DNA of 64,000 nucleotides. It comes from Escherichia coli. Its GTDB lineage: Bacteria > Pseudomonadota > Gammaproteobacteria > Enterobacterales > Enterobacteriaceae. The DNA is taken from assembly GCF_030013595.1 (NCBI RefSeq), contig NZ_CP122768.1, one strand, 5' to 3'. The position numbers and the translations under genes are program-made. How positions within the stretch are numbered: the stretch's first letter is position 1; the number at the start of each line of letters is the position of its first letter. The notes under the pieces were generated by a model. The model was not told the origin of the DNA, ran no database searches, and saw only the letters and a program-made list of their open reading frames with translations. Shown piece after piece: positions 4,296-54,105 of this stretch.

Positions 4296-5483
4296 TTAGA
4301 ACTGGTAGACTAAGCCCACAGCTACGATATCATCGGTAGCGATGCCGTTTTCTTTGTAGAAGTCGTCGTCGTTGTCCAGCAGGTTGATTTTGTAATCAAC
4401 GTAGGTGGACATGTTTTTGTTGAAGTAGTAGGTCATACCAATATCAACATATTTAACCAGATCTTTGTTGGTGTAATGATGATTGCCCTGGCTGTCGAAG
4501 TTATCACTATTTACACCGCCTAAATCCTTACCTTTAGATTGCAGGTAAGCGATGGACGGGCGCAGACCGAAGTCGAACTGATACTGAGCAACCACTTCAA
4601 AGTTTTGGGTTTTGTTAGCGATCGCATCAGCATCACCGTAACCAGTCATGTTACGGGTTTCAGCATACATAGCTGCTAAGTAAACGTTATTAGCGTCGTA
4701 TTTAGCACCAACGGTCCATGCTTCTGCTGTTTCACCGCCAGCAGTTGCATCGAAGCGATCTCCATAACGAGTGTTATGAGTACCTTTGTGAACCTGATTG
4801 TCGGTACGGTCAGAGTTAGAGTAAGCAGCGCCCAGACTTAAACCAAAGTCAAAGTCATAGGAAGTGGACATACCGAAGCCGTCGCCGTTCTCTTTAGCTA
4901 ACTTACGGCCATTACCGTTACCAGAACCTTCCTGACCGAATAATCCATCATCTTCATTATTACCCTGATATTGCAGAGCAAAGTTCAGGCCATCGACCTG
5001 GCCAAAGAAGCCATTGTTACGGTAGGTTGCAACACCATTAGCACGACCGTTCATGAAGTTGTCGGCACCAGCATAGGTATCGCCACCAAATTCTGGCAGC
5101 ATATCGGTCCATGCTTCGATGTCATATACGACACCGTAGTTACGACCATAGTCGAAAGTACCATTCTGACCAAAGCCTAAACCTGCAAATGCCAGACGCG
5201 TTGCGGTATTACCTTTGTCGCTTTCAGGACCGTTTGCGCCAATGTTAAATTCCCACTGACCATAACCAGTGAATTGGTCAGCGATCTGAGTTTCACCTTT
5301 GAAACCGATACGGGCATATGACATGTCGCCATCGCTGCCAGCATCATCAGAGAAGTAGTGCAGGCCCGCTACTTTTCCGTACAAATCCAGTTTATTACCA
5401 TCTTTATTATAGACTTCAGCCGCATTTGCTGCGCCAGCAACTAATAACGCCGGGACCAGCATTGCCAGAACTTTTCTTTTCAT
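4296..5483 (-). CDS. yedS: OmpC/OmpN-family general porin, intact (yedS-like; yedS is a pseudogene in K-12)
   Basis: Signal peptide [21 protein letters not shown], porin beta-barrel with C-terminal ...GLVYQF; start trimmed from the 5513 ORF. Confidence 0.8.
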
Positions 5484-6030
5484 TATGTATTCCCTTGTGA
5501 TTATAATCTTCATGAATATATCAATAAGTGCTGTTATCCAAAAAAAAGCACATTTGGATACTATTCTATGAAGTTCATTTTATTTTAAAGATTACATGTA
5601 ACAAATGTATTTAAAAGATTTCAAAATGTTTCCAATCTGTTTAATATAATTCAGAATTATGAATTCTGAATATAAATATTCACGAATATTATGAATGCAT
5701 ATCAATATGTTATGAGTTGAGCGGAAACATAGGGAGTATCAATGATTGTTGTGCTAAACGGCTGGTGTGATCTCGCGCACATTAATGAAGGCATAAAAAA
5801 AGCCGGCATCATGCCGGCCCAAAAAATATAAACAAGACGATAAAAGGCTAATAACGGAAGCATCATGACACAGAATAATAAAAAGGGATAATTGTAATCA
5901 GTGCTAATATATTGATTGAATGAATTAATAAAGCCGATATCAAAGATAAATAAAATCGCTCAAAACGATTTTTCCTGTATTCACTGCCATTGCGCAAAAA
6001 TTATCTATTTGTTCAAAAAATGATTGAGTC

Positions 6031-7214: not shown

Positions 7215-8633
7215 ATGCAGGAAAATATATCAGTAACCGATTTATACAGCACCGGGAATGCCGCACAGGCAATGCTGGAGAAACTGCTGCAAATTTATGA
7301 TGTTAAAACGCTGGTGGCGCAGCTTAATGGTGTGGGTGAGAATCACTGGAGCGCGGCAATTTTAAAACGTGCGCTGGCGAATGACTCGGCATGGCATCGT
7401 TTAAGTGAGAAAGAGTTCGCCCATCTGCAAACGTTGTTACCCAAACCACCGGCACATCATCCGCATTATGCGTTTCGCTTTATCGATCTATTTGCCGGAA
7501 TTGGCGGCATCCGTCGCGGTTTTGAATCGATTGGCGGACAGTGCGTGTTTACCAGCGAATGGAACAAACATGCGGTACGCACTTATAAAGCCAATCATTA
7601 TTGCGACCCGGCGACGCATCATTTTAATGAAGATATCCGCGACATCACCCTCAGCCATAAAGACGGCGTGAGTGATGAGGCGGCGGCGGAACATATTCGT
7701 CAACACATTCCTGAACACGATGTATTACTGGCGGGTTTTCCTTGTCAGCCATTTTCGCTGGCTGGCGTATCGAAAAAGAACTCGCTCGGGCGGGCGCATG
7801 GTTTTGCCTGCGATACCCAGGGCACGCTGTTCTTTGATGTGGTGCGCATTATCGACGCGCGTCGTCCGGCGATGTTTGTGCTCGAAAACGTCAAAAACCT
7901 GAAAAGTCACGATAAAGGAAAAACGTTCCGCATCATCATGCAGACGCTGGAGGAACTGGGCTATGACGTGGCTGATGCAGAAGATAACGGGCCGGACGAT
8001 CCGAAAATCATCGATGGTAAACATTTCCTGCCGCAGCACCGTGAACGCATCGTGCTGGTGGGGTTTCGTCGCGATCTGAATCTGAAAGCCGATTTTACCC
8101 TGCGTGATATCAGCGAATGTTTCCCTGCGCAGCGAGTGACGCTGGCCCAGCTGCTGGACCCGATGGTCGAGGCGAAATATATCCTGACGCCGGTGTTGTG
8201 GAAGTACCTCTATCGTTATGCGAAAAAACATCAGGCACGCGGTAACGGCTTCGGTTATGGAATGGTTTATCCGAACAATCCGCAAAGCGTCACGCGTACG
8301 CTGTCTGCGCGTTATTACAAAGATGGCGCGGAAATTTTAATCGATCGCGGTTGGGATATGGCCACGGGTGAGAAAGACTTTGACGATCCGCTGAATCATC
8401 AACATCGTCCACGTCGGTTAACGCCTCGGGAATGCGCGCGCTTAATGGGTTTTGAAGCGCCGGGAGAAGCGAAATTCCGCATTCCGGTTTCGGACACTCA
8501 GGCCTATCGCCAGTTCGGTAACTCGGTGGTCGTACCGGTCTTTGCCGCGGTGGCAAAACTGCTTGAGCCAAAAATCAAACAGGCGGTGGCGTTGCGTCAG
8601 CAAGAGGCACAACATGGCCGACGTTCACGATAA
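7215..8633 (+). CDS. dcm: DNA-cytosine C5 methyltransferase Dcm (CCWGG)
   Basis: 472 aa; motifs FAGIGG, PCQPFS, ENV. Confidence 0.9.
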
Positions 8634-9084
8634 GGCCACACGCAGCAAAAATATGCGCGCAATTGCCACGCGTGATACGGCGATTGAGAAGCGTCTCGCC
8701 AGTTTGTTAACCGGGCAGGGACTGGCGTTTCGCGTTCAGGACGCCAGTCTGCCCGGACGCCCGGATTTTGTCGTTGATGAATATCGCTGCGTGATATTTA
8801 CCCACGGCTGCTTCTGGCATCATCATCACTGCTATCTGTTTAAAGTGCCTGCGACTCGAACCGAGTTCTGGCTGGAGAAGATAGGTAAAAATGTTGAGCG
8901 GGATCGCCGTGATATCAGTCGCTTGCAGGAGCTTGACTGGCGTGTACTGATTGTCTGGGAGTGTGCGTTACGTGGGCGCGAGAAGCTGACGGATGAAGCG
9001 CTTACCGAGCGTCTGGAAGAGTGGATCTGCGGCGAAGGTGCCAGCGCGCAGATCGACACGCAGGGGATTCATTTACTCGCTTGA
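8614..9084 (+). CDS. vsr: very-short-patch repair endonuclease Vsr; 5' end overlaps dcm 3' end in a different frame
   Basis: ATG at 8614 gives [17 protein letters not shown]... 156 aa; ORF-track entry 8452..9084 is the extended frame. Confidence 0.85.
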
Positions 9085-15852: not shown

Positions 15853-16638
15853 TTATATTAATGGCAATTCACTAATAATATCAGCCAGCAAATTAAAAAT
15901 TTCACTGAATAAATGTTCGCAAAAAGGCGCAATTAACGGCATTAATGCCGCCATTAAAGAGATGCCGACAGTCAGAGTTAATGGAAATCCAATAACAAAA
16001 ATGGATAATTGCGGGGCCATACGATTAAGTAAACCTAATGCCAGATTCAGTGTCAGCAGCAGAGTAATGAGCGGTAACGCCAGCATCAGCCCGTTAAGGA
16101 AAATCAAACTCCCTGCTTTGGTGAGTGCCAGAAACGCATTGCTGTTCAACGGTTCGCCACCAATCGGCAGGGTGTGAAAGGTATCGACCAGCAGTGAAAT
16201 CAACCATAAATGACCGTTAAATGTCAGGAACAGCAGTAACGCCAGCATATCCATGATACGCGCTAAAACGGGCATATTAAGATGGCTGGCCGGATCGACA
16301 AATGTCGCAAATGACAGCCCCATTTGCAGACCGATAATTTCGCCAGCGGTTCGCACAGCGGCAAAGGCAAATTGCATGGTAAAACCAAGCGCAATGCCGA
16401 TCAGGATCTGCTGCACGGCCAGCCACAGAGCAAAGAACGAAAAAACAGGAACATCGTTGGCAGGTAATGATGGGGCAATGGCGAACGTGATCATCATTGC
16501 CAGACCCAGTTTTACCCGTTTCGGTACGCTACGTTCGCTCAGAATTGGCGCGGTAGAAATGAGCGCCAGCACGCGCAGTAACGGCCAGAAGTACAGACTT
16601 AGCCAGGATAGCCATTGATCGCTTGTCACCTGCAACAT
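15853..16638 (-). CDS. fliR: flagellar export apparatus protein FliR
   Basis: 261 aa multi-TM; last gene of the fliL operon. Confidence 0.9.
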
Positions 16639-16646
16639 TGTACGGG

Positions 16647-16916
16647 CTACCCGATGATATACGGCAGGTTAGTGAACAAGGTGCGGACGTAATCCAGCAA
16701 CAGATTGAGCATCCACGGTCCGGCAATAATAATGGCGATAAATACGGCGATGATTTTCGGAATAAACGACAGCGTCATTTCGTTAATCTGCGTGGCGGCC
16801 TGCAAAATACTGATGATAAGGCCCGTGACCAACGCTACCAACAATAGCGGGGCAGCCAGTGCCAGCGCGACTTTCATCGCTTCAGTCCCCATCATCATGA
16901 CCGATTCAGGTGTCAT
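16647..16916 (-). CDS. fliQ: flagellar export apparatus protein FliQ
   Basis: 89 aa, two TM. Confidence 0.9.
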
Positions 16917-16925
16917 TTTGCCTCT

Positions 16926-17663
16926 CTAGCTGTAAAAGCTCTGCGCCAGCGAACCGACCAGCAATTGCCAGCCATCCACCAGTACAAACAGCATCAGTTT
17001 AAAGGGCAGAGCAATGGTGGCTGGGGGAACCATCATCATCCCCAATGCCATCAACACGCTGGCAATCACCAGGTCGATAATCAAAAAAGGAATGAAAATC
17101 GTGAAGCCTATCTGAAATGCGGTTTTCAACTCGCTGGTCACGTAGGCCGGGAGCAAAATGCGCATCGGCACGGCTTCAGGTCCCTGCAACGGGCCAGTAT
17201 TTGCCAGTCTGGCAAACAACCCTAAATCCGCCTCACGGGTCTGACGCAGCATAAACTCACGCAGCGGCTGCGCCCCTTTTTCCAGCGCCTCCTGCATTGA
17301 TATTTTCTCTTCGCTGAATGGCTGGTACGCATCGACATAAATTTTATCGATCACCGGCGACATAATAAAAAAGGTCAAAAACAGCGCCAGCCCCAGCAAT
17401 ACCTAGTTAGGTGGTGCGGAGGGCGTTCCCAGCGCGTTACGCAATAAACCAAAAACAATGATGATGCGAGTGAAACTGGTCATCATCAGTAAAATTGCCG
17501 GAATAAACGTCAACGAGGTGATGAACACCAGCGTCTGCACCGGGAGCGACCAGCTTTGTCCACCGCCAGGCAGCGGCTGGCTGGTGATACCCGGCAGTTG
17601 CGCGAAGGCGAGGGGCGTAACCAGCCAGAGAAGGACAGGTGCGACAGACAACAAACGACGCAT
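16926..17663 (-). pseudogene. fliP: fliP interrupted by an in-frame amber codon (TAG at 17403..17405, where the K-12 FliP sequence has Gln87); otherwise full-length 245-codon FliP
   Basis: ORF track splits FliP into 17403..17663 (...SAPPN*) and 16926..17399; the intervening reading is TAG-GTA-TTG = stop-V-L where FliP has N-Q-V-L-L-G. Confidence 0.7.
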
Positions 17664-18031
17664 CAGGATCTCCCGCTACGCTTAAGCAAGTTTTTCATGA
17701 CCGACTGAAAATCGGTCTGCGGTATCTCTTCCGTTGGTGCTGAAGGGGGAAGTTTATGCAGCAGATTGATTTGCCCAGCGGTAACGCCGAGCACCAGCCG
17801 TGCATCTTCTACATCGACCACCACGACCCGTTCACGCGCGCCCAGCGAAGCACTGGCGCTAATTTTCAGACCGTTAACGCCAGTGCGTTTCGGGGCAAAT
17901 CCCAGCCGTTTTACCAACCAGGCAGCAGCGAGGATCAGGGCAATAATGGCGATGAGTGCGCCGCTCACCTGCAGCAGTGGCGCAGCAGAAACCGGCGCGG
18001 AAGATTGCACAGTAGCGTGGTTATTCATCAC
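17663..18031 (-). CDS. fliO: flagellar protein FliO
   Basis: 122 aa, single TM, position between fliN and fliP. Confidence 0.85.
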
Positions 18032-18444
18032 TAACGGCTCAGGCGACGCATCCGCTCAGACGGAGTAATGATATCGGTGATCCGCACGCCATATTTATCA
18101 GCGACTACGACAACTTCGCCCTGAGCAATTAAATAACCGTTGATCAGAATATCCAGCGGTTCGCCCGCCAGACCGTCCAGCGCCACGACGGACCCTTGCG
18201 TCAGACGCAACAGCTCTTTGATGGTCATCCGCGTACGGCCCAGCTCGACGGTCAGCTTGACCGGAATATCCATAATCAGGTCGATATCCTGCAACGTTCC
18301 GCTGACATCACCACCGCCAAATTGCTGGAACACCGCGTCGGCAGCGCTTTTGCTGCTGGTTGATTTTTGTTCGCTCAACGCTTCAGCCCACAGATCGTCC
18401 ATTGCGCCGTTGTTGTCATCGGCCGGATTATTCATGTCACTCAT
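18031..18444 (-). CDS. fliN: flagellar motor switch protein FliN
   Basis: 137 aa, SpoA domain. Confidence 0.9.
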   Translation of the reverse strand: MSDMNNPADDNNGAMDDLWAEALSEQKSTSSKSAADAVFQQFGGGDVSGTLQDIDLIMDIPVKLTVELGRTRMTIKELLRLTQGSVVALDGLAGEPLDILINGYLIAQGEVVVVADKYGVRITDIITPSERMRRLSR

Positions 18445-19445
18445 TTGGGCTGTTCCTCGTTCAGAGAATTTAAAATCGGGTTAATCAAATGTTCTATCCG
18501 TAACGCATACTGGCCGTTGAGAGTGCCGTACTGACTGGTCAGCACCGGGACGCCGTCAACATGGGCGATGATGCGATCGGGTTTTTCTATCGGCAGGACG
18601 TCGCCGGGTTTCAGTTTTAAAATCTGCGACAGGCGTAGCGAGATATCGGCAAAGTTGGCGACCAGCTCCAGCTGCGAATGCTGCACCTGGCGCACCAGGT
18701 TATCGCGCCAGTTCTGATCTTCATTACGCGAGTTTTCCAGCGGCGGGTTAACCAACAATTCCCGTAGCGGCTCGATCATGCTGAATGGCAGGCAGATATT
18801 AAATTCGCCTGTCAGGTTGCCAATCTCCACATGGAACGGCGTGTTAACCACGATGTCGTTCGGCGAGGTGGTGATATTGGTAAATTTCACCTGCATTTCC
18901 GAACGCACGTACTCAACTTCCAGCGGATTAATCGCCTTCCAGGCGTCGCTATAGCCTTCAAGCGCCAGCTTTAACATGCGGTTGATGACGCGCTGTTCGG
19001 TATGGGTAAACTCGCGACCTTCCACTTTGGTCGGGAAGCGTCCATCGCCGCCAAACAGGTTATCCACGGCGATAAACACCAGACTCGGTGAGAACACCAC
19101 CAGCCCTGTGCCGCGCAGCGGTTTCAGATGGATAAGGTTCAGGTTGGTCGGCACCGGCAGGTTGCGGGCAAATTCATGGTACGGCTGAATGCGGATGGCC
19201 CCGACGGTAATGTCCGGGCTACGGCGCAGCAGGTTGAACAGCCCCATACGAAAATGGCGGGCAAAGCGCTCATTAATGATTTCCAGCGCCTGCAAACGTT
19301 CGCGCACAACCCGTCGTTGGGTATTCGGATCGTACGGACGAATGTCACTTTCGCCGCTAACACTGGCTGTCGGTTCGTCTTTGACTTCGCTGTCACCATT
19401 CAACAGCGCATCAATTTCAGCTTGAGAAAGAATACTATCGCCCAT
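18441..19445 (-). CDS. fliM: flagellar motor switch protein FliM (start at MGDSILSQAEIDALL)
   Basis: 334 aa after trimming the 368-aa ORF; CheY-binding N-terminus. Confidence 0.9.
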   Translation of the reverse strand: MGDSILSQAEIDALLNGDSEVKDEPTASVSGESDIRPYDPNTQRRVVRERLQALEIINERFARHFRMGLFNLLRRSPDITVGAIRIQPYHEFARNLPVPTNLNLIHLKPLRGTGLVVFSPSLVFIAVDNLFGGDGRFPTKVEGREFTHTEQRVINRMLKLALEGYSDAWKAINPLEVEYVRSEMQVKFTNITTSPNDIVVNTPFHVEIGNLTGEFNICLPFSMIEPLRELLVNPPLENSRNEDQNWRDNLVRQVQHSQLELVANFADISLRLSQILKLKPGDVLPIEKPDRIIAHVDGVPVLTSQYGTLNGQYALRIEHLINPILNSLNEEQPK

Positions 19446-19449
19446 GTCG

Positions 19450-19914
19450 TTATCGCAGAATAAAAGCGGTATACAGCACGTCGGTGACATCCTGTTTCGG
19501 TTGCCCGGCAACAAGCGGGGTGGAAAGTGTGGTTTTAATCTCGGCAATCAGTTTTTTCTTGCCTTCTTCTGTCGCCAGTACGGCAGCATCCTGACGCGAA
19601 AACAGTAACAGCAAACGGCTACGGACTTCCGGCAAATACTCACTCAGCCGCGAGCGGGTAGCTTCATCTTTCAGGCGCAGGGTTATGCCGATATAAAGCA
19701 CGCGATCCGCATCGCCCAAATTGACCGTAAAGGTATCCAGCGCATAGAAGACCGGTGAGGGCACGACGCGTTGCTGCGCTTTGTCTTCAGCGGCAACCTG
19801 ATGCGAATGCCAGTAGCTGTAACCTGCGCTGGCACAGGCCGCGAGGGTAATGAATACCAGAATCGGGATCCAAAGCGATCGCTTGCTTTTCTTGCTTATC
19901 GCGTAATCAGTCAT
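19450..19914 (-). CDS. fliL: flagellar basal-body-associated protein FliL
   Basis: 154 aa, N-terminal TM. Confidence 0.9.
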
Positions 19915-27716: not shown

Positions 27717-27892
27717 GACGATTCCGTATTGGTGTTATTTTTGCAATATGCCAACAGGTACTGAAATCTTTGTCTAATAGAGATTTCTTATGACGCAGTA
27801 TTGTTGATCAATAATCTCCAGGCTTATCAGATAGGTTGAATTAACTCCGCTCCCTGGTTTTTAACATTACCCACCGCGCGCGATACCGGGTG

Positions 27893-28495
27893 CTAGGTGA
27901 ACTGGTTTGCTGGCACACAGCCACTGGTAGCGATTTCTGAGGCTTCTTTACCGCCAATATCTTGCCGCATCCATTCCCGCGCAGCTTCTGGCGACAGTAC
28001 CAGTGGGCGGCGGTCATGAATATCTACCAGACCCTGGTCTGCTGCTGCAGTGACAATCAAAAATCCTTCGGCTTCGTCACCGCGCTCGAACGGTGTGCTG
28101 CCTATCGCGGCCATAAAAACAGGTTGTCCGTCAGCGCGATAGATAAAATAAGGCTGTTTTTTGTCGCCTTCTTTTTTCCACTCAAACCAGCCGTCGGCAA
28201 AACAGATTGCCCGACCGTGTTGCCAGAGCGGTTTAAACATGCGACTGGTTGCGGCAGTTTCTACGCGGGCGTTAATCAGCGGCGGTTTATCCCACCATCC
28301 GGGAGCATATCCCCAGAAAACCGGATCCAGATGAAGGTGTTCATCACGTTCACTGAGCAGAAGAACTTTGGTTCCCGGCGCGACGTTGTATCTGCCAATG
28401 GGTTCGGGATCGTAGGGAATATCGCGTTCAATATCTTCCGCGAGAAGCGCAAGGTAATCTTCACGCGTTTGGGATTGGGCAAAGCGTCCACACAT
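27893..28495 (-). CDS. yedK: SRAP-domain abasic-site processing protein YedK
   Basis: N-terminal MCGRF (catalytic Cys2), SOS-response-associated peptidase family. Confidence 0.8.
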   Translation of the reverse strand: MCGRFAQSQTREDYLALLAEDIERDIPYDPEPIGRYNVAPGTKVLLLSERDEHLHLDPVFWGYAPGWWDKPPLINARVETAATSRMFKPLWQHGRAICFADGWFEWKKEGDKKQPYFIYRADGQPVFMAAIGSTPFERGDEAEGFLIVTAAADQGLVDIHDRRPLVLSPEAAREWMRQDIGGKEASEIATSGCVPANQFT

Positions 28496-34707: not shown

Positions 34708-36360
34708 ATGGCACAAGTCATTAATACCAACAGCCTCTCGCTGATCACTCAAAATAATATCAACAAGAACCAGTCTGCGCTGTCGAGTTCTATCGAGCGT
34801 CTGTCTTCTGGCTTGCGTATTAACAGCGCGAAGGATGACGCCGCAGGTCAGGCGATTGCTAACCGTTTTACTTCTAATATTAAAGGCCTGACTCAGGCTG
34901 CACGTAACGCCAACGACGGTATTTCTGTTGCACAGACCACCGAAGGCGCGCTGTCCGAAATCAACAACAACTTACAGCGTATTCGTGAACTGACGGTTCA
35001 GGCTTCTACCGGGACTAACTCTGATTCGGATCTGGACTCCATTCAGGACGAAATCAAATCCCGTCTGGACGAAATTGACCGCGTATCCGGTCAAACCCAG
35101 TTCAACGGTGTGAACGTACTGGCGAAAGACGGTTCGATGAAAATTCAGGTTGGTGCGAACGATGGCCAGACTATCACTATCGACCTGAAAAAAATTGACT
35201 CTGATACGCTGGGGCTGAGTGGGTTTAATGTGAATGGTGGCGGTTCTGTCGCTAACACTGCTGCATCTAAAGCTGACTTGGTAGCTGCTAATGCAACTGT
35301 GGTCGGCAACAAATATACTGTGAGTGCGGGTTACGATGCTGCTAAAGCGTCTGATTTGCTGGCTGGAGTTAGTGATGGTGATACTGTTCAGGCAACCATT
35401 AATAACGGCTTCGGAACGGCGGCTAGTGCAACGAATTACAAGTATGATAGTGCAAGTAAGTCTTACTCTTTTGATACCACAACGGCTTCAGCTGCCGATG
35501 TTCAGAAATATTTGACCCCAGGTGTTGGTGATACCGCTAAGGGCACTATTACTATCGATGGTTCTGCACAGGATGTTCAGATCAGTAGTGATGGTAAAAT
35601 TACGGCAAGCAATGGAGATAAACTCTACATTGATACAACTGGGCGCTTAACGAAAAACGGCTCTGGTGCATCTTTGACTGAGGCTAGTCTGTCCACACTT
35701 GCAGCCAATGATACCAAAGCGACAACCATTGACATCGGCGGTACCTCTATCTCCTTTACCGGTAATAGTACTACGCCGGACACTATTACTTATTCAGTAA
35801 CAGGTGCAAAAGTTGATCAGGCAGCTTTCGATAAAGCTGTATCAACCTCTGGAAACAATGTTGATTTCACTACCGCAGGTTATAGCGTAAACGGCACAAC
35901 TGGCGCTGTAACAAAAGGTGGTAATTCGGTTTATGTTGATAACAACGGGGCGTTGACCACATCTGATACTGTAGATTTTTACCTACAGGATGATGGTTCA
36001 GTGACTAACGGCAGCGGTAAGGCAGTTTATAAAGATGCTGACGGTAAATTGACGACAGATGCTGAAACAAAAGCAGCTACGACAGCCGATCCCCTGAAAG
36101 CTCTGGACGAAGCCATCAGCTCCATCGACAAATTCCGCTCCTCCCTCGGTGCCGTTCAAAACCGTCTGGATTCTGCGGTGACCAACCTGAACAACACCAC
36201 TACCAACCTGTCTGAAGCGCAGTCCCGTATTCAGGACGCCGACTATGCGACCGAAGTGTCCAATATGTCGAAAGCGCAGATCATTCAGCAGGCCGGTAAC
36301 TCCGTGCTGGCAAAAGCTAACCAGGTACCGCAGCAGGTTCTGTCTCTGCTGCAGGGTTAA
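34708..36360 (+). CDS. fliC: flagellin FliC, 550-aa allele with a long divergent central domain (K-12 H48 flagellin is 498 aa)
   Basis: Conserved N terminus ([22 protein letters not shown]...) and C terminus (...[12 protein letters not shown]); Thr/Ser/Gly-rich variable middle. Confidence 0.9.
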
Positions 36361-39988: not shown

Positions 39989-40657
39989 ATGCAAGAAAGT
40001 ATACAACTGGTTATTGATTCCTTGCCGTTCCTGCTGAAAGGGGCTGGGTATACGCTGCAACTCAGTATCGGCGGCATGTTTTTTGGCTTACTGCTAGGGT
40101 TTATTCTCGCGCTGATGCGCCTTTCACCAATCTGGCCCGTGCGCTGGCTGGCGCGTTTTTATATCTCTATTTTTCGTGGTACGCCACTCATCGCACAACT
40201 GTTTATGATCTATTACGGCTTGCCGCAGTTTGGCATCGAACTAGATCCCATTCCGTCAGCAATGATTGGTCTGTCGCTAAACACTGCCGCCTATGCTGCC
40301 GAAACGCTGCGTGCCGCCATTTCTTCTATTGATAAAGGTCAGTGGGAAGCTGCTGCCAGTATTGGTATGACGCCGTGGCAGACCATGCGTCGCGCGATTT
40401 TGCCACAGGCGGCGCGGGTGGCGTTGCCGCCGCTGTCGAACAGCTTTATCAGCCTGGTAAAAGATACGTCGCTGGCCGCGACAATCCAGGTGCCGGAGCT
40501 GTTCCGTCAGGCGCAGTTGATTACCTCGCGCACGCTGGAAGTGTTCACCATGTACCTGGCGGCTTCGCTCATCTACTGGATCATGGCGACAGTATTATCG
40601 ACGTTGCAGAACCATTTTGAGAATCAACTTAATCGCCAGGAGAGAGAACCAAAATGA
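39989..40657 (+). CDS. tcyL: cystine ABC transporter permease TcyL (YecS)
   Basis: 222 aa, EAA-type permease. Confidence 0.85.
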   Translation: MQESIQLVIDSLPFLLKGAGYTLQLSIGGMFFGLLLGFILALMRLSPIWPVRWLARFYISIFRGTPLIAQLFMIYYGLPQFGIELDPIPSAMIGLSLNTAAYAAETLRAAISSIDKGQWEAAASIGMTPWQTMRRAILPQAARVALPPLSNSFISLVKDTSLAATIQVPELFRQAQLITSRTLEVFTMYLAASLIYWIMATVLSTLQNHFENQLNRQEREPK

Positions 40658-41406
40658 GTGCCATTGAAGTCAAGAACCTGGTGAAAAAATTCCACGGTCA
40701 GACGGTGCTGCACGGTATCGACCTTGAGGTGAAGCCTGGCGAAGTAGTGGCAATTATCGGTCCAAGTGGTTCCGGCAAAACCACGTTGCTACGCAGCATA
40801 AATCTGCTGGAACAACCGGAAGCGGGAACCATCACCGTTGGCGATATCACCATTGATACTGCACGTTCATTAAGTCAGCAAAAATCGCTGATTCGCCAGT
40901 TGCGTCAGCACGTCGGGTTTGTCTTCCAGAACTTTAATTTGTTTCCGCATCGTACGGTGCTGGAAAACATTATTGAAGGGCCGGTGATCGTCAAAGGTGA
41001 ACCGAAAGAAGAGGCCACGGCGCGCGCTCGCGAGCTGTTGGCGAAAGTTGGGCTGGCAGGTAAAGAAACCAGCTATCCACGTCGTTTGTCTGGCGGTCAA
41101 CAGCAGCGTGTCGCGATTGCGCGAGCGCTGGCAATGCGTCCTGAAGTGATTTTGTTTGACGAGCCAACGTCGGCGCTGGATCCAGAGCTGGTGGGCGAAG
41201 TCCTGAACACCATCCGCCAGCTGGCGCAGGAAAAGCGCACCATGGTGATTGTGACGCACGAAATGAGCTTTGCCCGGGATGTTGCGGACCGGGCGATCTT
41301 TATGGACCAGGGGCGGATAGTCGAGCAGGGGGCCGCAAAAGCGTTATTTGCCGATCCCGAGCAGCCTCGCACCCGCCAGTTCCTCGAGAAGTTTCTGCTG
41401 CAATAA
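40654..41406 (+). CDS. tcyN: cystine ABC transporter ATPase TcyN (YecC)
   Basis: 250 aa, Walker A GPSGSGKTT, LSGGQQQRV signature. Confidence 0.85.
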   Translation: MSAIEVKNLVKKFHGQTVLHGIDLEVKPGEVVAIIGPSGSGKTTLLRSINLLEQPEAGTITVGDITIDTARSLSQQKSLIRQLRQHVGFVFQNFNLFPHRTVLENIIEGPVIVKGEPKEEATARARELLAKVGLAGKETSYPRRLSGGQQQRVAIARALAMRPEVILFDEPTSALDPELVGEVLNTIRQLAQEKRTMVIVTHEMSFARDVADRAIFMDQGRIVEQGAAKALFADPEQPRTRQFLEKFLLQ

Positions 41407-41635
41407 TAAGAAAAAATCAGCCCCGACGATTCACCTGTCGGGGCGGGACGCCATTTCAAGCGTAATAAAAGTGCTTAACAAATCAGCATAACTCATTAAT
41501 AACATAAGAGAATACGATAGCTTGCAAAAGTAATTCATTGCCTGAATAATATAAATTATATATAAATCTTATTTATGTGATAGTTTGAATTATCATTATA
41601 AATGATACTCACTCTCAGGGGCGTTGCGGTTTACT

Positions 41636-42358
41636 ATGCAGGATACGGATTTTTTCAGCTGGCGTCGCACGATGCTGTTGCGTTTTCAGAGGATGGAGGC
41701 CGCAGAAGAGGTCTACCATGAAATAGAGCTTCAGGCTCAGCAGCTGGAGTACGATTACTATTCGTTATGTGTTCGCCACCCGGTACCATTCACGCGACCT
41801 AAAGTGGCTTTCTACACCAATTACCCTGAGGCGTGGGTTAGTTATTATCAGGCAAAAAATTTTCTCGCAATTGATCCGGTGCTGAACCCTGAAAACTTTA
41901 GTCAGGGCCATTTAATGTGGAATGATGACTTATTCAGCGAAGCACAGCCGTTATGGGAAGCTGCGCGCGCACATGGTTTACGCCGCGGTGTCACTCAGTA
42001 TTTAATGCTGCCAAATCGGGCGCTGGGCTTTTTGTCCTTTTCCCGTTGCAGCACGCGCGAAATACCCATTCTTAGTGATGAACTGCAATTAAAAATGCAG
42101 TTACTGGTGCGCGAAAGTCTGATGGCTCTGATGCGTTTAAATGATGAAATAGTGATGACGCCAGAGATGAATTTCAGCAAGCGCGAAAAAGAAATTCTGA
42201 AATGGACGGCGGAAGGGAAGACATCAGCAGAGATAGCGATGATTTTGTCAATCTCTGAGAATACGGTCAATTTCCATCAGAAAAACATGCAGAAAAAAAT
42301 CAATGCACCAAATAAGACCCAGGTGGCCTGTTACGCGGCCGCTACTGGCTTAATTTGA
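41636..42358 (+). CDS. sdiA: LuxR-type quorum-sensing regulator SdiA (start MQDTDFFSWRR)
   Basis: 240 aa; autoinducer-binding domain plus C-terminal LuxR HTH. Confidence 0.85.
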   Translation: MQDTDFFSWRRTMLLRFQRMEAAEEVYHEIELQAQQLEYDYYSLCVRHPVPFTRPKVAFYTNYPEAWVSYYQAKNFLAIDPVLNPENFSQGHLMWNDDLFSEAQPLWEAARAHGLRRGVTQYLMLPNRALGFLSFSRCSTREIPILSDELQLKMQLLVRESLMALMRLNDEIVMTPEMNFSKREKEILKWTAEGKTSAEIAMILSISENTVNFHQKNMQKKINAPNKTQVACYAAATGLI

Positions 42359-42385
42359 GCGCTTTTCTTTCTGCGTGCCAGATGC

Positions 42386-42422
42386 AAAAACCGGCTGAAA
42401 GGCACGCTCTCAGCCGGTTTTA
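42386..42422. terminator. bidirectional terminator between sdiA and yecF (aaaaaccggctga...tcagccggtttta)
   Basis: 9-bp stem flanked by an A-run and a T-run. Confidence 0.55.
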
Positions 42423-42424
42423 TA

Positions 42425-42649
42425 TTACTGACGGTAGGCTTGTTTAATTTGCTTAACCGTTTTGGAAAATACTGCAGCCTGGGTTTCGTCTTCGATCAGC
42501 GCAAGCTGTTTTTCCATCTTTAACATCACGCGGCCCGCGTCAGCTTGTCCCATCGCCTGCAGCATCAGCGTCAGCATCGCTTTCAGGCAGGAGACTTCAT
42601 TTGCCAGTTCTTGATTATTCTCGGCAGTAGAAAAATCAGGCGTACTCAT
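42425..42649 (-). CDS. yecF: DUF2594 small protein YecF
   Basis: 74 aa, synteny. Confidence 0.8.
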
Positions 42650-43107
42650 TTATTTTCCTCGTCATGTTGCAATGAAAATTTGCGGTGAAAAATGTTAAGG
42701 CGGCGGAGTATACCATAAGCTTCGCTAAAAATAGCAGTGGTTGTTTTTTGAGCGTGATATCGGCAGTGCTATAAAATACGTTAATATAATGACCAATAAA
42801 TATTTTTATCATGAATGTTTTTTGCCCGTATTGTTCGGGTTAATTAATGTTACATATTCAGCGGGCTGATTTTCATTTTTGCTGAATAAAGTCAATTTTT
42901 GTCACATTTCATCGCAGGGCTTACAGTGAAACGATCCCGGAAGCCGTTGGTGACGGGCGTGACCATAACTGTGGACAATCGAATTTACAAAAACGAGAGA
43001 AAAATCGAATACCCACCATTTTTAACGTTTCAAAGTTGCAATAAAAACCGCTAATATACGAATGACTAACTATCAGTAGCGTTATCCCTATTTCTGGAGA
43101 TATTCCT

Positions 43108-43764
43108 TTGATCAACGTTCTACTTGTTGATGACCACGAACTGGTGCGCGCAGGGATACGACGCATTCTGGAAGATATAAAGGGTATAAAAGTCGTCGGT
43201 GAGGCATCGTGCGGTGAAGACGCCGTTAAGTGGTGCCGGGCAAATGCCGTTGACGTGGTGCTAATGGACATGAGTATGCCGGGCATTGGCGGTCTTGAGG
43301 CGACGCGTAAAATCGCGCGTTCCACAGCTGATGTCAAAATCATCATGCTTACCGTCCATACAGAAAACCCTTTACCAGCGAAAGTCATGCAGGCCGGTGC
43401 TGCGGGCTACCTCAGCAAAGGCGCGGCTCCGCAGGAAGTCGTGAGTGCGATCCGTTCTGTCTATTCAGGGCAGCGTTACATTGCTTCTGACATCGCTCAA
43501 CAAATGGCGTTAAGCCAGATCGAACCAGAAAAAACAGAAAGCCCATTTGCCAGTTTGTCTGAACGTGAATTGCAGATTATGCTGATGATCACCAAGGGCC
43601 AGAAGGTCAATGAGATCTCAGAACAGCTCAATCTCAGTCCGAAAACGGTGAACAGCTACCGCTATCGTATGTTCAGTAAACTAAACATTCATGGCGATGT
43701 TGAGCTGACTCACCTGGCAATTCGCCATGGTCTGTGTAATGCGGAGACATTATCAAGTCAGTGA
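43108..43764 (+). CDS. uvrY: response regulator UvrY (BarA partner; TTG start)
   Basis: 218 aa [21 protein letters not shown]... Confidence 0.9.
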
Positions 43765-45593
43765 GTGATCAGTTTGACGCAAAAGCGTTTTTAAAAACCG
43801 TAACCAGCCAGCCAGGCGTTTATCGCATGTATGATGCTGGTGGTACGGTTATCTATGTCGGCAAAGCGAAAGACCTGAAAAAACGGCTTTCCAGCTATTT
43901 CCGTAGCAACCTCGCTTCGCGCAAAACCGAAGCGCTGGTCGCCCAGATCCAGCAAATTGATGTAACGGTTACTCATACAGAAACCGAAGCGCTGTTGCTG
44001 GAACACAACTACATCAAACTCTATCAGCCGCGTTACAACGTTTTGCTACGCGATGATAAATCTTATCCTTTTATCTTCCTGAGTGGCGATACTCACCCGC
44101 GTCTGGCGATGCATCGTGGTGCGAAGCATGCCAAAGGTGAATATTTCGGCCCGTTCCCGAATGGCTATGCCGTACGTGAAACACTGGCGCTACTGCAAAA
44201 GATATTCCCCATTCGCCAGTGCGAAAATAGTGTTTATCGCAATCGCTCGCGTCCGTGTCTGCAATATCAGATAGGGCGCTGTCTGGGACCGTGCGTTGAA
44301 GGACTGGTGAGTGAAGAAGAATACGCTCAGCAGGTCGAGTATGTGCGCCTGTTTTTGTCTGGCAAAGATGATCAGGTGCTTACGCAACTCATTAGCCGTA
44401 TGGAAACTGCCAGCCAGAATCTGGAGTTTGAAGAAGCGGCACGTATTCGCGACCAAATTCAGGCGGTGCGACGCGTCACCGAAAAACAGTTTGTGTCCAA
44501 TACCGGCGACGACCTTGACGTTATTGGTGTGGCGTTCGATGCGGGCATGGCTTGTGTCCACGTATTGTTCATTCGTCAGGGTAAAGTGCTCGGCAGCCGC
44601 AGCTATTTCCCGAAAGTGCCTGGCGGTACGGAACTGAGCGAGGTGGTGGAAACCTTCGTAGGTCAGTTCTATTTACAAGGCAGCCAGATGCGCACCTTAC
44701 CGGGTGAGATCCTGCTCGATTTTAATCTTAGCGATAAAACGCTGCTCGCCGATTCCCTTTCAGAACTGGCGGGACGCAAGATTAATGTTCAAACTAAACC
44801 TCGCGGCGATCGGGCGCGTTATCTGAAACTCGCGCGCACCAATGCGGCGACGGCCTTAACCAGCAAACTTTCGCAGCAATCTACCGTTCACCAGCGACTG
44901 ACCGCACTTGCCAGCGTGTTGAAATTGCCGGAAGTGAAGCGGATGGAGTGCTTTGACATCAGCCATACCATGGGTGAACAAACCGTCGCTTCCTGTGTGG
45001 TGTTTGATGCTAACGGCCCGCTGCGTGCGGAGTATCGGCGCTATAACATTACTGGCATTACGCCGGGCGATGATTATGCGGCGATGAATCAGGTGCTGCG
45101 TCGGCGTTATGGTAAAGCCATCGACGACAGTAAGATCCCGGATGTGATCCTTATTGACGGCGGCAAAGGCCAGCTTGCGCAGGCGAAAAATGTCTTCGCC
45201 GAACTGGATGTCTCATGGGATAAAAATCATCCGCTGCTACTTGGCGTTGCCAAAGGAGCAGATAGGAAGGCTGGGCTGGAAACGCTGTTCTTTGAGCCGG
45301 AAGGTGAGGGATTCAGTTTGCCGCCAGATTCTCCCGCGCTGCATGTTATCCAGCATATTCGCGACGAATCACACGATCACGCGATTGGTGGGCACCGTAA
45401 AAAACGGGCGAAGGTCAAAAATACCAGTTCCCTGGAAACCATTGAAGGCGTCGGGCCAAAACGTCGGCAAATGTTGTTGAAATATATGGGCGGTTTGCAA
45501 GGTTTACGTAACGCCAGCGTTGAGGAAATTGCAAAAGTGCCGGGTATTTCGCAAGGTCTGGCAGAAAAGATCTTCTGGTCGTTGAAACATTGA
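43761..45593 (+). CDS. uvrC: excinuclease ABC subunit C (GTG start)
   Basis: 610 aa; GIY-YIG N-terminus, C-terminal HhH. Confidence 0.9.
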
Positions 45594-45649
45594 TGTCTCT
45601 GTAGCAACATAGGGGTAATCTTACTGACAACAGATAGTTACCCGTCATT

Positions 45650-46198
45650 ATGCAATTTAATATCCCTACGTTGCTTACACTGTTCCGTGTCATCCTTATC
45701 CCATTCTTTGTATTGGTCTTTTATCTGCCTGTCACCTGGTCGCCGTTTGCCGCCGCGCTCATTTTCTGCGTCGCGGCGGTGACTGACTGGTTCGATGGTT
45801 TTCTGGCACGCCGCTGGAACCAGAGTACCCGGTTTGGTGCTTTCCTTGACCCTGTAGCAGATAAAGTTCTCGTGGCTATCGCCATGGTGCTGGTAACCGA
45901 GCATTATCACAGCTGGTGGGTGACCTTACCGGCAGCAACGATGATCGCCCGTGAAATTATTATTTCTGCGCTACGCGAATGGATGGCGGAGTTGGGTAAA
46001 CGCAGTAGCGTGGCTGTCTCCTGGATTGGGAAAGTGAAAACCACTGCCCAGATGGTGGCGCTGGCCTGGCTGCTGTGGCGTCCGAACATTTGGGTTGAGT
46101 ACGCCGGTATTGCACTTTTCTTTGTGGCTGCGGTACTGACTCTGTGGTCAATGTTGCAATATTTGAGCGCTGCGCGTGCAGATTTGCTTGATCAGTGA
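45650..46198 (+). CDS. pgsA: CDP-diacylglycerol--glycerol-3-phosphate 3-phosphatidyltransferase PgsA
   Basis: 182 aa. Confidence 0.9.
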
Positions 46199-46248
46199 TC
46201 GTTTCGGCGCAATTTTCAGCAAACGATCAAAAGTGGTGAAAAATATCG

Positions 46249-46276
46249 TTGACTCATCGCGCCAGGTAAGTAGAAT
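46249..46276 (+). promoter_or_regulatory. putative sigma-70 promoter of the glyW-cysT-leuZ operon (TTGACT-16 nt-TAGAAT)
   Basis: Hexamers read directly about 75 bp upstream of glyW. Confidence 0.45.
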
Positions 46277-46349
46277 GCAACGCATCGAACGGCGGCACTG
46301 ATTGCCAGACGATAATAAAATCAAGTTATTAACTGATTGCTTGATGAAT

Positions 46350-46425
<76 letters not shown>

Positions 46426-46479
46426 GTTTAAAAGGCATCGGCGTCAAGCGGATGTCTGGCTGAAAGGCCTGAAGAATTT

Positions 46480-46553
46480 GGCGCGTTAACAAAGCGGTTA
46501 TGTAGCGGATTGCAAATCCGTCTAGTCCGGTTCGACTCCGGAACGCGCCTCCA
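46480..46553 (+). tRNA. cysT: tRNA-Cys(GCA)
   Basis: GGCGCGTTAACAAAGCGG...TTGCAAATCC...GGTTCGACTCCGGAACGCGCCTCCA, 74 nt. Confidence 0.9.
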
Positions 46554-46565
46554 CTTTCTTCCCGA

Positions 46566-46652
46566 GCCCGGATGGTGGAATCGGTAGACACAAGGGATTT
46601 AAAATCCCTCGGCGTTCGCGCTGTGCGGGTTCAAGTCCCGCTCCGGGTACCA
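46566..46652 (+). tRNA. leuZ: tRNA-Leu(UAA)
   Basis: GCCCGGATGGTGGAATCGGTAGACAC...TTTAAAATCC... long variable arm ...GGTTCAAGTCCCGCTCCGGGTACCA, 87 nt. Confidence 0.9.
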
Positions 46653-46695
46653 TGGGAAAGATGAGAATAAAATCAAAGCAATAAGCAGTGTCGTG

Positions 46696-46720
46696 AAACC
46701 ACCTTCGGGTGGTTTTTTTG
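46696..46720 (+). terminator. leuZ operon terminator (aaccacc-ttcg-ggtggtt-tttttt)
   Basis: Hairpin plus T6. Confidence 0.75.
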
Positions 46721-46782
46721 TGTCTTCTTTCTCATTTCCGAAGATGCGTCCGAAGATGATTTTTCTCTGGACGCATCATCAT

Positions 46783-47826
46783 TCATTTTCTCTGGCCACC
46801 AACTACGGGCACTACTTTAACTTTTCGGTCATATGCTGCTGTCTGTCGTGGGTTCTTATGCCCGGAAATTGCTTGCTTCTCTTCCAGGCTGCCTTCCAGA
46901 TCAGAGATACCTTTTGCTTTCAGATCATGAAATGTGAAGTCTATTTGCAGATGAGGATATTTTTCCTGTGCTGCCGCTTTGACATCACGCCAACGAGAGT
47001 TAAAACCATCACGGGTGTACTTGCCTCCGGTAGTTTGATGAATCACAAACAGGCTACTGATTCCCGGTTTTAATGGCAGAGAACGAGCCAGAGCTATCGC
47101 TTTCTGCAGACGAGGCGACCAGGCTTTGATTTGCTTAACGCCGGTTTTTCCCTGACGAATGTAGATCCCGGAATCGAACAGCTGGTCTTTCTGTAATGAA
47201 AGTACATCACTCTGTCTGGCCACACATAAGTAGGCAATCTCCATTGCCACGCGAACAACATCAGGAGACACTTCATAAACGGCCTGATATTCTTCATCCG
47301 TAATATAACGTTCGCGTGCTGTCTCTTTAAACTGCTTAACTCCCTGACAAGGATTCCTCTGGACATAACCTCGTTCATAACCCCAACGGAATACCCTGGA
47401 CATAAAGCTTTTTTCCCTATTTGCCTGAGTTCGGCTTGATAAACCGCGTTGATCCATATAGCGCCGAATATGTTCAGGTTTGATTTTATCCGGGTCGATC
47501 TTCCCGAAGACAGGCAGAACTTTTCCGGAATATTTTGTGTAGTCTTTCCTGGTTTCGACTGCCAAATCCATAAAATCAGGGGAGGTCATGAATTGTTCCG
47601 CGAGCGCCTGAAAAGTATTTCTTTCTTTTTCGTCACCGACCGCTTTTTCATATGCCAGCCATACGGCTGATCGTGGCGCATCCAATGCGCACAGGCGTAT
47701 CGCTTTGTTATCTTTATTCCTGAATTCGTAGGCCGCTTTGCCCTGGTAAACACGAGGCGGCATCCAGTTATCTGCTGGGTTCTTTCTCTTTCCGGCCATT
47801 AAATATTGCTCCAAAATCAGGTTCAT
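46783..47826 (-). CDS. int: phage tyrosine integrase (likely start at MAGKRKNP or MPPRVYQ, overlapping the upstream xis-like gene)
   Basis: C-terminal catalytic region (...HDLKAKGISDLEGSLEEKQAISGHKNPRQTAAYDRK), tRNA-adjacent. Confidence 0.85.
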   Translation of the reverse strand: MNLILEQYLMAGKRKNPADNWMPPRVYQGKAAYEFRNKDNKAIRLCALDAPRSAVWLAYEKAVGDEKERNTFQALAEQFMTSPDFMDLAVETRKDYTKYSGKVLPVFGKIDPDKIKPEHIRRYMDQRGLSSRTQANREKSFMSRVFRWGYERGYVQRNPCQGVKQFKETARERYITDEEYQAVYEVSPDVVRVAMEIAYLCVARQSDVLSLQKDQLFDSGIYIRQGKTGVKQIKAWSPRLQKAIALARSLPLKPGISSLFVIHQTTGGKYTRDGFNSRWRDVKAAAQEKYPHLQIDFTFHDLKAKGISDLEGSLEEKQAISGHKNPRQTAAYDRKVKVVPVVGGQRK

Positions 47827-48031
47827 CTTCTTTTCGCGTCGTCACCTCCTGTAAATTGCGAAATTTTATTGGGTTCAAGAAATGGCCCCAGGTTGTTTTT
47901 GGGTGCCCGTCAGCCCTTTCCATGAAGAAAATTCCAGCCCGGCGAAGAGCCTCACATTGCTTTGATTTAAGTGGGCTTCCCGTCAGCTCGACCATTTCTT
48001 CTCTGGTGATTATGTCGTGATCGCTTTTCAT
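47768..48031 (-). CDS. putative excisionase / small DNA-binding protein
   Basis: 87 aa, immediately upstream of and overlapping int; SD aggaaagacc before the ATG. Confidence 0.4.
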   Translation of the reverse strand: MKSDHDIITREEMVELTGSPLKSKQCEALRRAGIFFMERADGHPKTTWGHFLNPIKFRNLQEVTTRKEDEPDFGAIFNGRKEKEPSR

Positions 48032-48422
48032 GGTCTTTCCTCATTATGTAGCTTATTGCGTCATCTGCCTTCTGGCAGGCACGGGCAATATCAGACTCGG
48101 TCAAAGTCTGTTTCCTGACGCTGGCCGACAGTCGGCCAATTTTGATATCAAATGCGGAGAGCAGAGTTGCTCCCGGTTGCCATCGCAGCATTGTGATCCT
48201 CCGGTTACTGGTGAAACGCAATGCTAGCGATGGTGAGTTTTTATTTCTGATTAGGCGTAATCAGTTCTGGTGGGGGGAATGCCGATTTCTCCCGCGTGAC
48301 CTTAATGTTTTCTGGCAGGTGTAGCCCAAGTTCGCAGCGACTCCGTGCTTCAATAATGCCATTGGTACCATCGGCAAGTACCAGGTGAACCGCGTCACCA
48401 CGCTTTAATGTGAGTTTAAGCA

Positions 48423-48992
48423 TTAGCGTACCCTCAGCGAACGTTCGCCGCGTTCCAGATGTGCGCCTGGTACCGGGTTTAATAACTCGGCTGGTGGTGT
48501 TTCTCCACGCGCCAGTATTTCGGCGGCAACCGCCTCCGCAGATTCAATCACTTCTTTAATGGCTCGCTTGTTTGGTGTAATAACCGTTTCTACATCAACA
48601 AGTGACACGCCTTCATACTCATCCGGGATCTTATCTTTGCTATCGATAATTACCCGGATAGCCCCCTGTGCATCAGTAAATGTGTTTTTTGCGGTTTTTA
48701 GTTTATCCAGGCCAGCAGCTTGCAGGCAGGCGAGCATATGCTTCCGAATTGCTTTTTCCTTGCCTTCAAAGGACGTCTTACGGGTAGCCAGGCGAGACAT
48801 TTCTTCAGCGCAGGTACTGGCATTGCCCTGTAAATTACGGCAGATGACCATCATGGCGTCCAGTTTGTCTCCCAGTTCTCCTTCCATACCTTCAAGCGTG
48901 TCGGCGATCATCTCTGGCGTCAGTTCGTCGGAGGTTTCTAACAGGTCAATCAGACTGGCATATTCTTTTGCAATAGCGATAGCAGTGCTCAT
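48423..48992 (-). CDS. Siphovirus Gp157-family protein (accessory to phage recombinases)
   Basis: Pattern Y..L..LLE...E...DTLEGMEGE...NL...E..RL..RK...E...R..L..L..AG..K.KT..FT......I.D...IP.EY matches the Gp157 family; stop overlaps the recombinase-like gene. Confidence 0.55.
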   Translation of the reverse strand: MSTAIAIAKEYASLIDLLETSDELTPEMIADTLEGMEGELGDKLDAMMVICRNLQGNASTCAEEMSRLATRKTSFEGKEKAIRKHMLACLQAAGLDKLKTAKNTFTDAQGAIRVIIDSKDKIPDEYEGVSLVDVETVITPNKRAIKEVIESAEAVAAEILARGETPPAELLNPVPGAHLERGERSLRVR

Positions 48993-51214: not shown

Positions 51215-51244
51215 TGGTCTTTCCTCATTACAGGTCAGTGGTCT

Positions 51245-51565
51245 TTAGTAGGGGATTTCATCAGTATCTGGCGTGTATTCGATGCAAAGTAACTGCTGGA
51301 TTTTGTCATCGATAGCAGCAATACGCTGTTGGGCGTCGGCGACTGTTTTCTGTTTTTGCTCATACAGCTGCTCGACCTGCAAACCGATGATGTCGATTGG
51401 CTGGGGCTGGTTGACGGTAATTTCAATTTCGCGGCTTTCCAGAAGGATGTACCTGTCTGGAAAATTTTTTGACATATCAACAGTCGCAACAAGCAGCTTT
51501 TCGTGGCTGAAAGTTGAAGTTGCATAATTAATAAAGAGTGTTACTGGGATGGTGCGCGCTTCCAT
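51245..51565 (-). CDS. hypothetical phage protein
   Basis: 106-aa ORF with SD aaggag 7 nt upstream, first gene after the leader. Confidence 0.4.
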   Translation of the reverse strand: MEARTIPVTLFINYATSTFSHEKLLVATVDMSKNFPDRYILLESREIEITVNQPQPIDIIGLQVEQLYEQKQKTVADAQQRIAAIDDKIQQLLCIEYTPDTDEIPY

Positions 51566-52413
51566 AGCGACTCCTTGGTGATGTATACTCGGGACCGATC
51601 AGCGAATATTGATCAGCTTCCATAGCGTCAGTGTCGTTGGTCTTTCCTCATCACAAGTTTGGTCACTTGTGATAAATCCGAATGGTTTGGTCGCCGTTCG
51701 GGGTAACTGGCCCGCCTTGTGCGGGTCTTTTGCTATCTAAAGGGTGCCGGTTACGTTTCCGGCGTCGTTATGTTTCCATCACGACCGTACGGGGCTGGTC
51801 TTTCCTGTTTTGAGCTGGTCAGGCTCATGGTCAACGCTGGTCAGGCGTGGTACTTCCTCCGGTCTTTCCCTGGTGTCACGCTGCGGGTTTGGCCTCTCCT
51901 GTTGGGGACTCAGGCACAGCGATAAAACCTGGCTGTGTGAAAAAATGGCCCATCGTGCGGACTGGGCAAAGGCTAAACACAGCAAATTGATGATGGGCGC
52001 CCGGAATCGAACCGGGTAACGGGCAGGGAGTTCCCGTTAAACACCTGTTCACCACAACCGGGAGCGCACTCCGCCATTTCAAAATTTAACGACAAAGCTC
52101 AAAGTTGAGTCGATGAAGTGCGCTCTCGTGTTGTAGCCAGGACTCTTCCCTGGTGGTCACACCGTATCGCCTTGATGGTGAATCAATCGCTCATACCTGG
52201 CTGTGGCTTGCACATTCCGGCTAGCTGCTATGGAGACAACGCGTTAAGGCTCCGCTTCCATCCAGACCGCTTCGACACATGTGCCATATGCCGGCGAAGT
52301 CTTTCCCTCTGTCATCGTGTTGGCGCCGACGCGCAAAATTTGATGCCGTCTTTCCGGCTGTCAGAACGTGTTTCTGAACAACTGCCGCTGGGTAAGCGTT
52401 GTTGATGAAAGTG

Positions 52414-52442
52414 ACTTTACAATTTGTATTTGTAATGGTCAA
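52414..52442 (-). promoter_or_regulatory. candidate PL-like leftward promoter (minus strand TTGACC-17 nt-TAAAGT) overlapped by palindromic operator TACAATTTGTA (52418..52428)
   Basis: Hexamers and palindrome read on the minus strand about 120 bp beyond the 3' end of the repressor gene, facing the leader and recombination genes. Confidence 0.35.
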
Positions 52443-54103: not shown

Positions 54104-54105
54104 GT

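Follow-up and report, generated by a model that had tools for sequence, protein, structure and literature searches.

Amber hotspots at CCAGG sites in lacI were reportedly described by Coulondre, Miller, Farabaugh, and Gilbert in 1978, and M. Lieb is said to have studied Vsr repair with amber mutations in lambda cI. A different precedent comes from flagellar decay: sorbitol-fermenting O157:H- strains, with a flhC deletion, and Shigella, with its flagellar operon defects, are non-motile and retain an intact but silent fliC. At the level of mechanism, CCWGG is a known hotspot for G:C to A:T changes at the methylated base (PMC13250602). A review that summarizes Cherry (2018) gives, for natural E. 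coli, an ~8-fold higher rate of C to T change at the inner C (PMC9520237), and the Vsr pathway normally corrects the T:G mismatch (PMC9520237).

The locus described here is a fliP gene in a 64,000-nt stretch of Escherichia coli DNA (hereafter, the window). As in the lacI ambers, a CAG codon has been converted to TAG through the inner C of a Dcm site, turning CCAGG into CTAGG. The lacI ambers came from laboratory selection in a reporter gene, whereas the fliP amber is natural, affects a flagellar gene, and is fixed in a circulating clone; the rate excess at the fliP site is modest. The clone displays the same excess of inner-C C to T changes (3 of 13 substitutions) that has been attributed to Dcm-site hypermutation in closely related natural isolates of E. 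coli and Salmonella (Cherry 2018, as summarized in PMC9520237 and cited in PMC13250602). With respect to Vsr repair (PMC9520237), the CTAGG now present in fliP is the product that the system normally prevents, and vsr is intact in the window; the fliP site differs in that neither repair nor reversion has been observed there, and in a heteroduplex with wild-type DNA Vsr would be expected to favor CAG. The clone resembles O157:H- and Shigella in combining a single early-gene lesion and an intact fliC with later lesions. In this clone, however, a nonsense point mutation has struck fliP, which encodes part of the export gate, instead of a master regulator, and there is no IS expansion in the window. 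The fliP features, in window coordinates, are the following.

16926..17663, minus strand: fliP pseudogene of 245 codons and its natural stop, broken by a premature stop at codon 87 (from its translation).
17403..17405, minus strand: in-frame amber TAG at codon 87 (ancestral CAG, Gln87), by comparison with intact alleles.
17402..17406, strand unassigned: CTAGG, what is left of a CCAGG Dcm site after mutation; window 17405 is the position of the inner C, the one that Dcm would methylate.
17403..17663, minus strand: remaining translatable fliP ORF of 86 residues, comprising the signal peptide and the first hydrophobic helix.
16926..17402, minus strand: untranslated remainder of fliP, codons 88-245, with the LGMMMVPP stretch and the C-terminal helices, 100% wild type.

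Translation of the 245-residue FliP frame reveals a single internal stop, which lies inside the interval 17397..17411 of the original prediction. In the list of window ORFs, the gene appears as two frames, one of 86 codons (17403..17663) and, after it, one of 157 codons that begins at a TTG (16926..17399); gene callers sometimes predict a fragment of 145 or 157 aa in the remainder at 16926..17402, and in public annotation both fragments match PF00813. The prediction of a single CAG to TAG change in an otherwise full-length and conserved gene is borne out, as the only difference in 738 nt from the alleles of strains C4 and HCP5S3_I2 is at gene position 259 (T here, C in both of them), that is, window 17405 (C to T on the coding strand, G to A on the plus strand). 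The intact FliP of these two strains is annotated as full-length WP_001253450.1, and fliP occupies the same place between fliO and fliQ as in their annotated gene order. With Gln at codon 87, the protein can be aligned over residues 1-245 with Salmonella FliP (PDB 6F2D/6R69; E = 4.7e-138), which also has Gln87 (PDB 6F2D); the sequence around this residue is identical in the two species. A functional FliP calls for an uninterrupted reading frame, and here the frame is interrupted; fliP at this locus is a pseudogene and is to be filed as such.

The amber is genuine and is fixed in a whole E. coli clone. Complete genomes do not contain the allele: none of the 5,426 complete RefSeq E. coli genomes has a 100% match to this fliP (the best six are 99.9% identical), and TAG-centered 30-mers representing two haplotype groups (with the 274T group left out) had 0 matches in complete E. 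coli genomes. The CAG control 30-mer was found in 3,084 of them. In public assemblies, the exact 86-residue product is encoded on 113 contigs, and 127 blocks of the collection contain the Dcm variant of the clone; each look-up covered the 24 longest contigs. All four deduplicated places with this Dcm variant (L079 to L082, representing 24 long contigs from different NCBI assemblies) have a fliP identical to that of the window, TAG included, and every examined place with this exact Dcm protein also carries the fliP TAG. Two further loci (L003 and L006) match the window at 99.98% identity, and their fliP is again identical, including the TAG. Examination of other isolates of the lineage, which had been proposed together with the original prediction, has turned up the same TAG allele in clone assemblies from several submitters. 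The records of the clone differ in their annotation: some split fliP into fragments of 86 and 145 aa, and several list no fliP product. Some annotation pipelines list no product for pseudogenes.

A close sister strain, the UK pig isolate HCP5S3_I2, has an intact fliP with CAG and an identical fliC. It differs from the window by 25 substitutions and 2 indels over 37.6 kb, with 6 differing sites in the 8.9 kb upstream. The stop codon is not conserved in the way that programmed readthrough or recoding would require: relatives have CAG, and TAG is derived on each background. Nor does the site look like a phase-variable locus, as it is a single substitution in non-repetitive sequence for which no reversion was seen.

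The origin of the amber is best considered together with two genes located elsewhere in the window.

7215..8633, plus strand: dcm, CCWGG cytosine methyltransferase, full length, 472 aa, with the clone-specific Q395H.
8614..9084, plus strand: vsr, very-short-patch repair endonuclease, full length, 156 aa, identical to that of the sister strain.

Within the ancestral AAC-CAG-GTA, gene positions 258-262 read CCAGG, and codon 87 begins with the inner C of this motif (position 259). The site shows several marks of a CCWGG hotspot mutation, namely an ancestral CCAGG, a mutated inner C, a C to T transition, and a full-length dcm. There are 19 possible single-transition nonsense changes in fliP, and Q87* alone falls at a Dcm inner C. 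We consider it likely that the fliP amber arose by deamination of a Dcm-generated 5-methylcytosine and became fixed in the clone, leaving a fliP pseudogene and a probably non-motile organism. In this sequence of events, Dcm would methylate the inner C of the fliP CCAGG, as suggested by the motif and the intact dcm; spontaneous deamination of the 5-methylcytosine would produce thymine; the T:G mismatch would escape very-short-patch repair; and replication would then fix CTAGG, to be read as TAG. The original prediction missed this Dcm-site cause, which is a new example of a known mechanism and an ordinary route to the loss of motility; it also missed the recurrence of the change on many E. coli backgrounds and a second Dcm-site amber, in yedK.

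The other substitutions of the clone also bear on this assignment. Differences between the window and the sister strain were polarized with C4 as the outgroup, which placed 8 substitutions on the branch of the window: yedE R390L, yedK W201*, fliK A342E (window 20122, derived), fliP Q87*, dcm Q395H (window 8399, derived), a synonymous change in dcm (codon 61, window 7397), and two intergenic changes. Dcm target positions account for two of these 8, the ambers in fliP and in yedK.

27827..28495, minus strand: yedK (SRAP family, annotated as SOS response-associated peptidase), with an amber at 27893..27895.

The yedK W201* change is TGG to TAG, i.e., CCTGG to CCTAG, at window 27894, and leaves an ORF of 200 aa versus 222. 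It lies ~10.5 kb from the fliP amber, is derived, and is common to the clone (L017); the same yedK amber is also found on a divergent background (L016) that has 20 differences within the gene. There are, in addition, five credible substitutions within the clone, one of which is a CCAGG to CTAGG change in L003 (window 20256, synonymous at fliK L297). Dcm targets make up 0.47% of positions, so that 3 of 13 substitutions at such targets correspond to P = 2.8e-5 if mutation is uniform. As this window was chosen on account of its fliP site, the fairer test omits that site, giving 2 of 12 substitutions at Dcm targets (P = 1.4e-3). Under a model with an 8-fold hotspot for G:C to A:T transitions, the corresponding probability is 0.03-0.10.

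The same codon has been hit on other backgrounds. Searches for the truncated FliP products expected from Q87* and from ten other transition-nonsense changes gave the following contig counts.

Q87*: 113 contigs on the V15 background and 36 on the I15 background.
Ten other transition-nonsense products: 1-54 contigs on V15 and 0-21 on I15.

Nearly all ten control products are thus present in the collection. As a measure of recurrence, raw contig counts were partly rejected, because clonal copies and contigs ending at the codon distort them; two Q87* matches (L014 and L015) and most control matches are such contig ends, not stops. Contigs that end inside fliP, often at or beside polymorphic sites, are common in this material (L014, L015, L020-L027, L030-L037, and L041-L047), and most of L049-L077 are likewise contigs of this kind and not nonsense alleles. 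Recurrence was therefore recounted as DNA-verified stops on distinct haplotypes.

Q87*: 9 verified haplotypes (V15 and I15 look-ups).
W232*: 5 verified haplotypes (two mutational targets, TAG and TGA).
Q124*: 3 verified haplotypes (V15 and I15 look-ups).
Q43*: 2 verified haplotypes (V15 look-up only).
Q233*: 1 verified haplotype (I15 look-up only).

The 11 TAG loci confirmed at the DNA level represent at least 9 different fliP haplotypes with Q87*. In verified haplotypes, the excess of Q87* over the best controls is ~2-4 fold, these controls having been picked as the most frequent ones. Every C to T nonsense allele that was checked recurs in this very large collection, and recurrence alone is therefore no proof of a hotspot. 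A 30-mer with CAG to CAA, the selection-free partner change expected from 5-methylcytosine on the opposite strand, had 0 matches in complete genomes, which argues against an extreme hotspot at codon 87. On this evidence, fliP codon 87 is probably a modest hotspot, the allele is not at high frequency species-wide, and CAG87 can be seen as a standing pre-amber codon that probably mutates at a somewhat higher rate.

These data frame the alternative that the C to T change was a replication error or the deamination of an unmethylated C, with the CCAGG context coincidental and methylation playing no causal part. The recurrence of non-Dcm fliP nonsense alleles on 1-5 haplotypes and the absence of the synonymous CAA partner from complete genomes speak for it, as does the fact that methylation at the fliP site is deduced from the motif and the intact dcm. 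Nevertheless, we regard this as unlikely: on either background, none of the 11 nonsense products is as frequent as that of Q87*, two other Dcm-target transitions are found among the 12 other substitutions of the clone (the test with P = 1.4e-3 above), and, if the ~8-fold rate of Cherry (2018), as summarized in the review (PMC9520237), applies, some 7/8 of C to T changes at such a site would be caused by methylation.

Two more elaborate proposals, which we hold to be improbable, accept deamination at the Dcm site and add to it. Codon 87 might act as a partly reversible motility switch, alternating between CCAGG and CTAGG species-wide; it might be turned off by 5-methylcytosine deamination and on by Vsr acting on T:G to give C:G at CTAGG, a step for which replication errors or heteroduplexes with wild-type DNA might provide the occasion. 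Alternatively, the rate at Dcm sites might be raised specifically in this clone. The point estimate of its Dcm-site enrichment is 27-65 fold, derived from three events only, one of them being the reason for choosing the window, against a published value of ~8-fold. Such a rise might be linked to Dcm Q395H. Both the switch and the raised rate rest on very few events and have a low probability.

Deamination at the Dcm site remains our preferred origin. According to the original prediction, the rest of the fli regulon looked intact, and in the window this is the case: all 19 other fli genes, i.e., fliA, fliZ, fliC, fliD, fliS, fliT, fliE to fliO, fliQ, and fliR, are full length. This survey covers the window; the flg, flh, mot, and che genes are located outside it. 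The gene cluster that includes fliP has the following composition.

15853..19914, minus strand: fliL-fliM-fliN-fliO-fliP-fliQ-fliR cluster, all intact except fliP.
19450..19914, minus strand: fliL.
18441..19445, minus strand: fliM.
18031..18444, minus strand: fliN.
17663..18028, minus strand: fliO.
16647..16916, minus strand: fliQ.
15853..16638, minus strand: fliR.

The flagellin gene fliC (34708..36360) is intact and encodes a 550-aa protein that is 100% identical to those of two UK pig isolates and 96.6-98.4% identical to the other full-length matches listed.

The flagellar export gate is formed by FliP5-FliQ4-FliR1. Release factor 1 would end translation of the mutated fliP after residue 86, without the remaining 158 residues, including LGMMMVPP. 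With FliP truncated in this way, no export gate would be expected to form, and hence no rod, hook, or filament; in the absence of export, FlgM would be retained, keeping class 3 genes off and the intact fliC silent. Rho-dependent polarity on fliQ and fliR may add to the effect. Judging from the sequence, the clone is probably non-motile and H-negative.

Further lesions are present in some carriers of the allele. A second fli lesion is found in 3 of 10 Q87* backgrounds: fliF Q316* (CAA to TAA) in L002, a 1-bp deletion in fliJ (equivalent to window 21388) that truncates FliJ to 97 aa in L003, and fliR W12* (TGG to TGA, at the outer position of CCTGG) in L009. In addition, L010 carries dgcQ Q312* (GCAGG to GTAGG). 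None of these secondary lesions of Q87* genomes (in fliF, fliJ, fliR, and dgcQ) bears the Dcm inner-C signature. The second fli lesions would fit decay after the system was lost and are consistent with loss of function.

A motile clone would require that the amber be rescued, either by a supE-type suppressor tRNA encoded elsewhere or by near-cognate readthrough with Gln. There is some logic to this: suppression by a tRNA-Gln would restore the exact wild-type FliP, the demand for FliP is low (five molecules per basal body, as established by structural work), and the remaining 158 fliP codons as well as all other fli genes of the window are intact. Even so, we give it only a slim chance. Suppressors are rare among natural isolates, and the window contains none: its tRNA genes are Gly-GCC, Cys-GCA, and Leu-TAA only, with no CUA anticodon among them, and glnV and glnX lie outside. 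The further fli lesions of sub-lineages and of other Q87* backgrounds are what would be expected of a dead system. Finally, TAG readthrough in wild-type E. coli averages only ~0.03% at 37 C and <1% at 18-25 C (PMC11126739). Searching the literature for non-motile E. coli with a nonsense allele of fliP yielded nothing relevant. We also considered a FliP made in two pieces, with the second initiated at the TTG one codon past the stop or at the ATG of codon 101, and judged it unlikely: on reading by eye, no Shine-Dalgarno-like sequence was noted upstream of the candidate starts, and the break would fall within the first helical hairpin.

It is very improbable that the TAG arose just once and was then spread by homologous recombination between E. 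coli backgrounds. E. coli does recombine, its fli region is a known mosaic, and the flanks of the TAG loci are diverse, differing by 52-200 sites per 8.9 kb. However, the nearest synonymous sites that distinguish the 9 haplotypes are located 10 nt upstream (position 249) and 14-20 nt downstream (positions 273, 274, and 279) of the mutation, which means that an imported tract would have to be shorter than ~25-30 nt, and the haplotype of the window is otherwise identical to intact CAG alleles. As recombination would need tracts of less than ~30 nt, repeated mutation offers a simpler account. A sequencing or assembly error in one record, an option left open by the original prediction, has nothing in its favor beyond the general prior for single-base errors and is practically excluded by the identical TAG in many independent assemblies of the clone (at least 8 loci from different NCBI assemblies and SRA runs, representing dozens of contigs) at a site outside any homopolymer.

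Several other features of the window deserve mention. The absence of a 100% fliP match raised the suspicion of a Shigella-like, IS-ridden genome, which was rejected, given the ordinary E. coli gene order and the lack of IS expansion in the window. A lambdoid prophage occupies approximately 46700..64000, adjoins the tRNA-Leu gene (46566..46652), and contains no tRNA genes; it starts with a tyrosine integrase (46783..47826, minus strand) and, per the annotation of the sister strain, encodes an exonuclease, cI/Cro-like regulators, a YdaT-family protein, and a replicative helicase. The sister-strain stretch that matches window 40000..64000 is ~2.7 kb longer, and its annotation lists IS3 copies in the prophage and ISVsa5 in yecU. 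A porin gene (4296..5513, minus strand) is an intact ORF of 405 codons in the window, while the annotation of the sister strain has it as an ompC pseudogene with a frameshift; the sister strain lacks 11 bp at the site of this indel (window 4477..4487).

For annotation, the finding means that curators should mark fliP of this clone as a pseudogene. Its H type can be predicted in silico from the intact fliC even though the clone is probably non-flagellate, and typing based on fliC only would mislead. In large assembly collections, most apparent truncated proteins represent contigs that end at polymorphic sites and not nonsense alleles; with contigs ending inside fliP, counts of truncated products overstate pseudogenes unless the DNA is checked. 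The current understanding of flagella and of Dcm mutagenesis is unchanged. More generally, any CAG or TGG codon inside CCWGG can be regarded as a standing pre-amber codon. The one in fliP, an essential flagellar gene, is found in at least 3,084 complete E. coli genomes, and with the pre-amber codon so common, one route to the loss of motility in this species is foreseeable.
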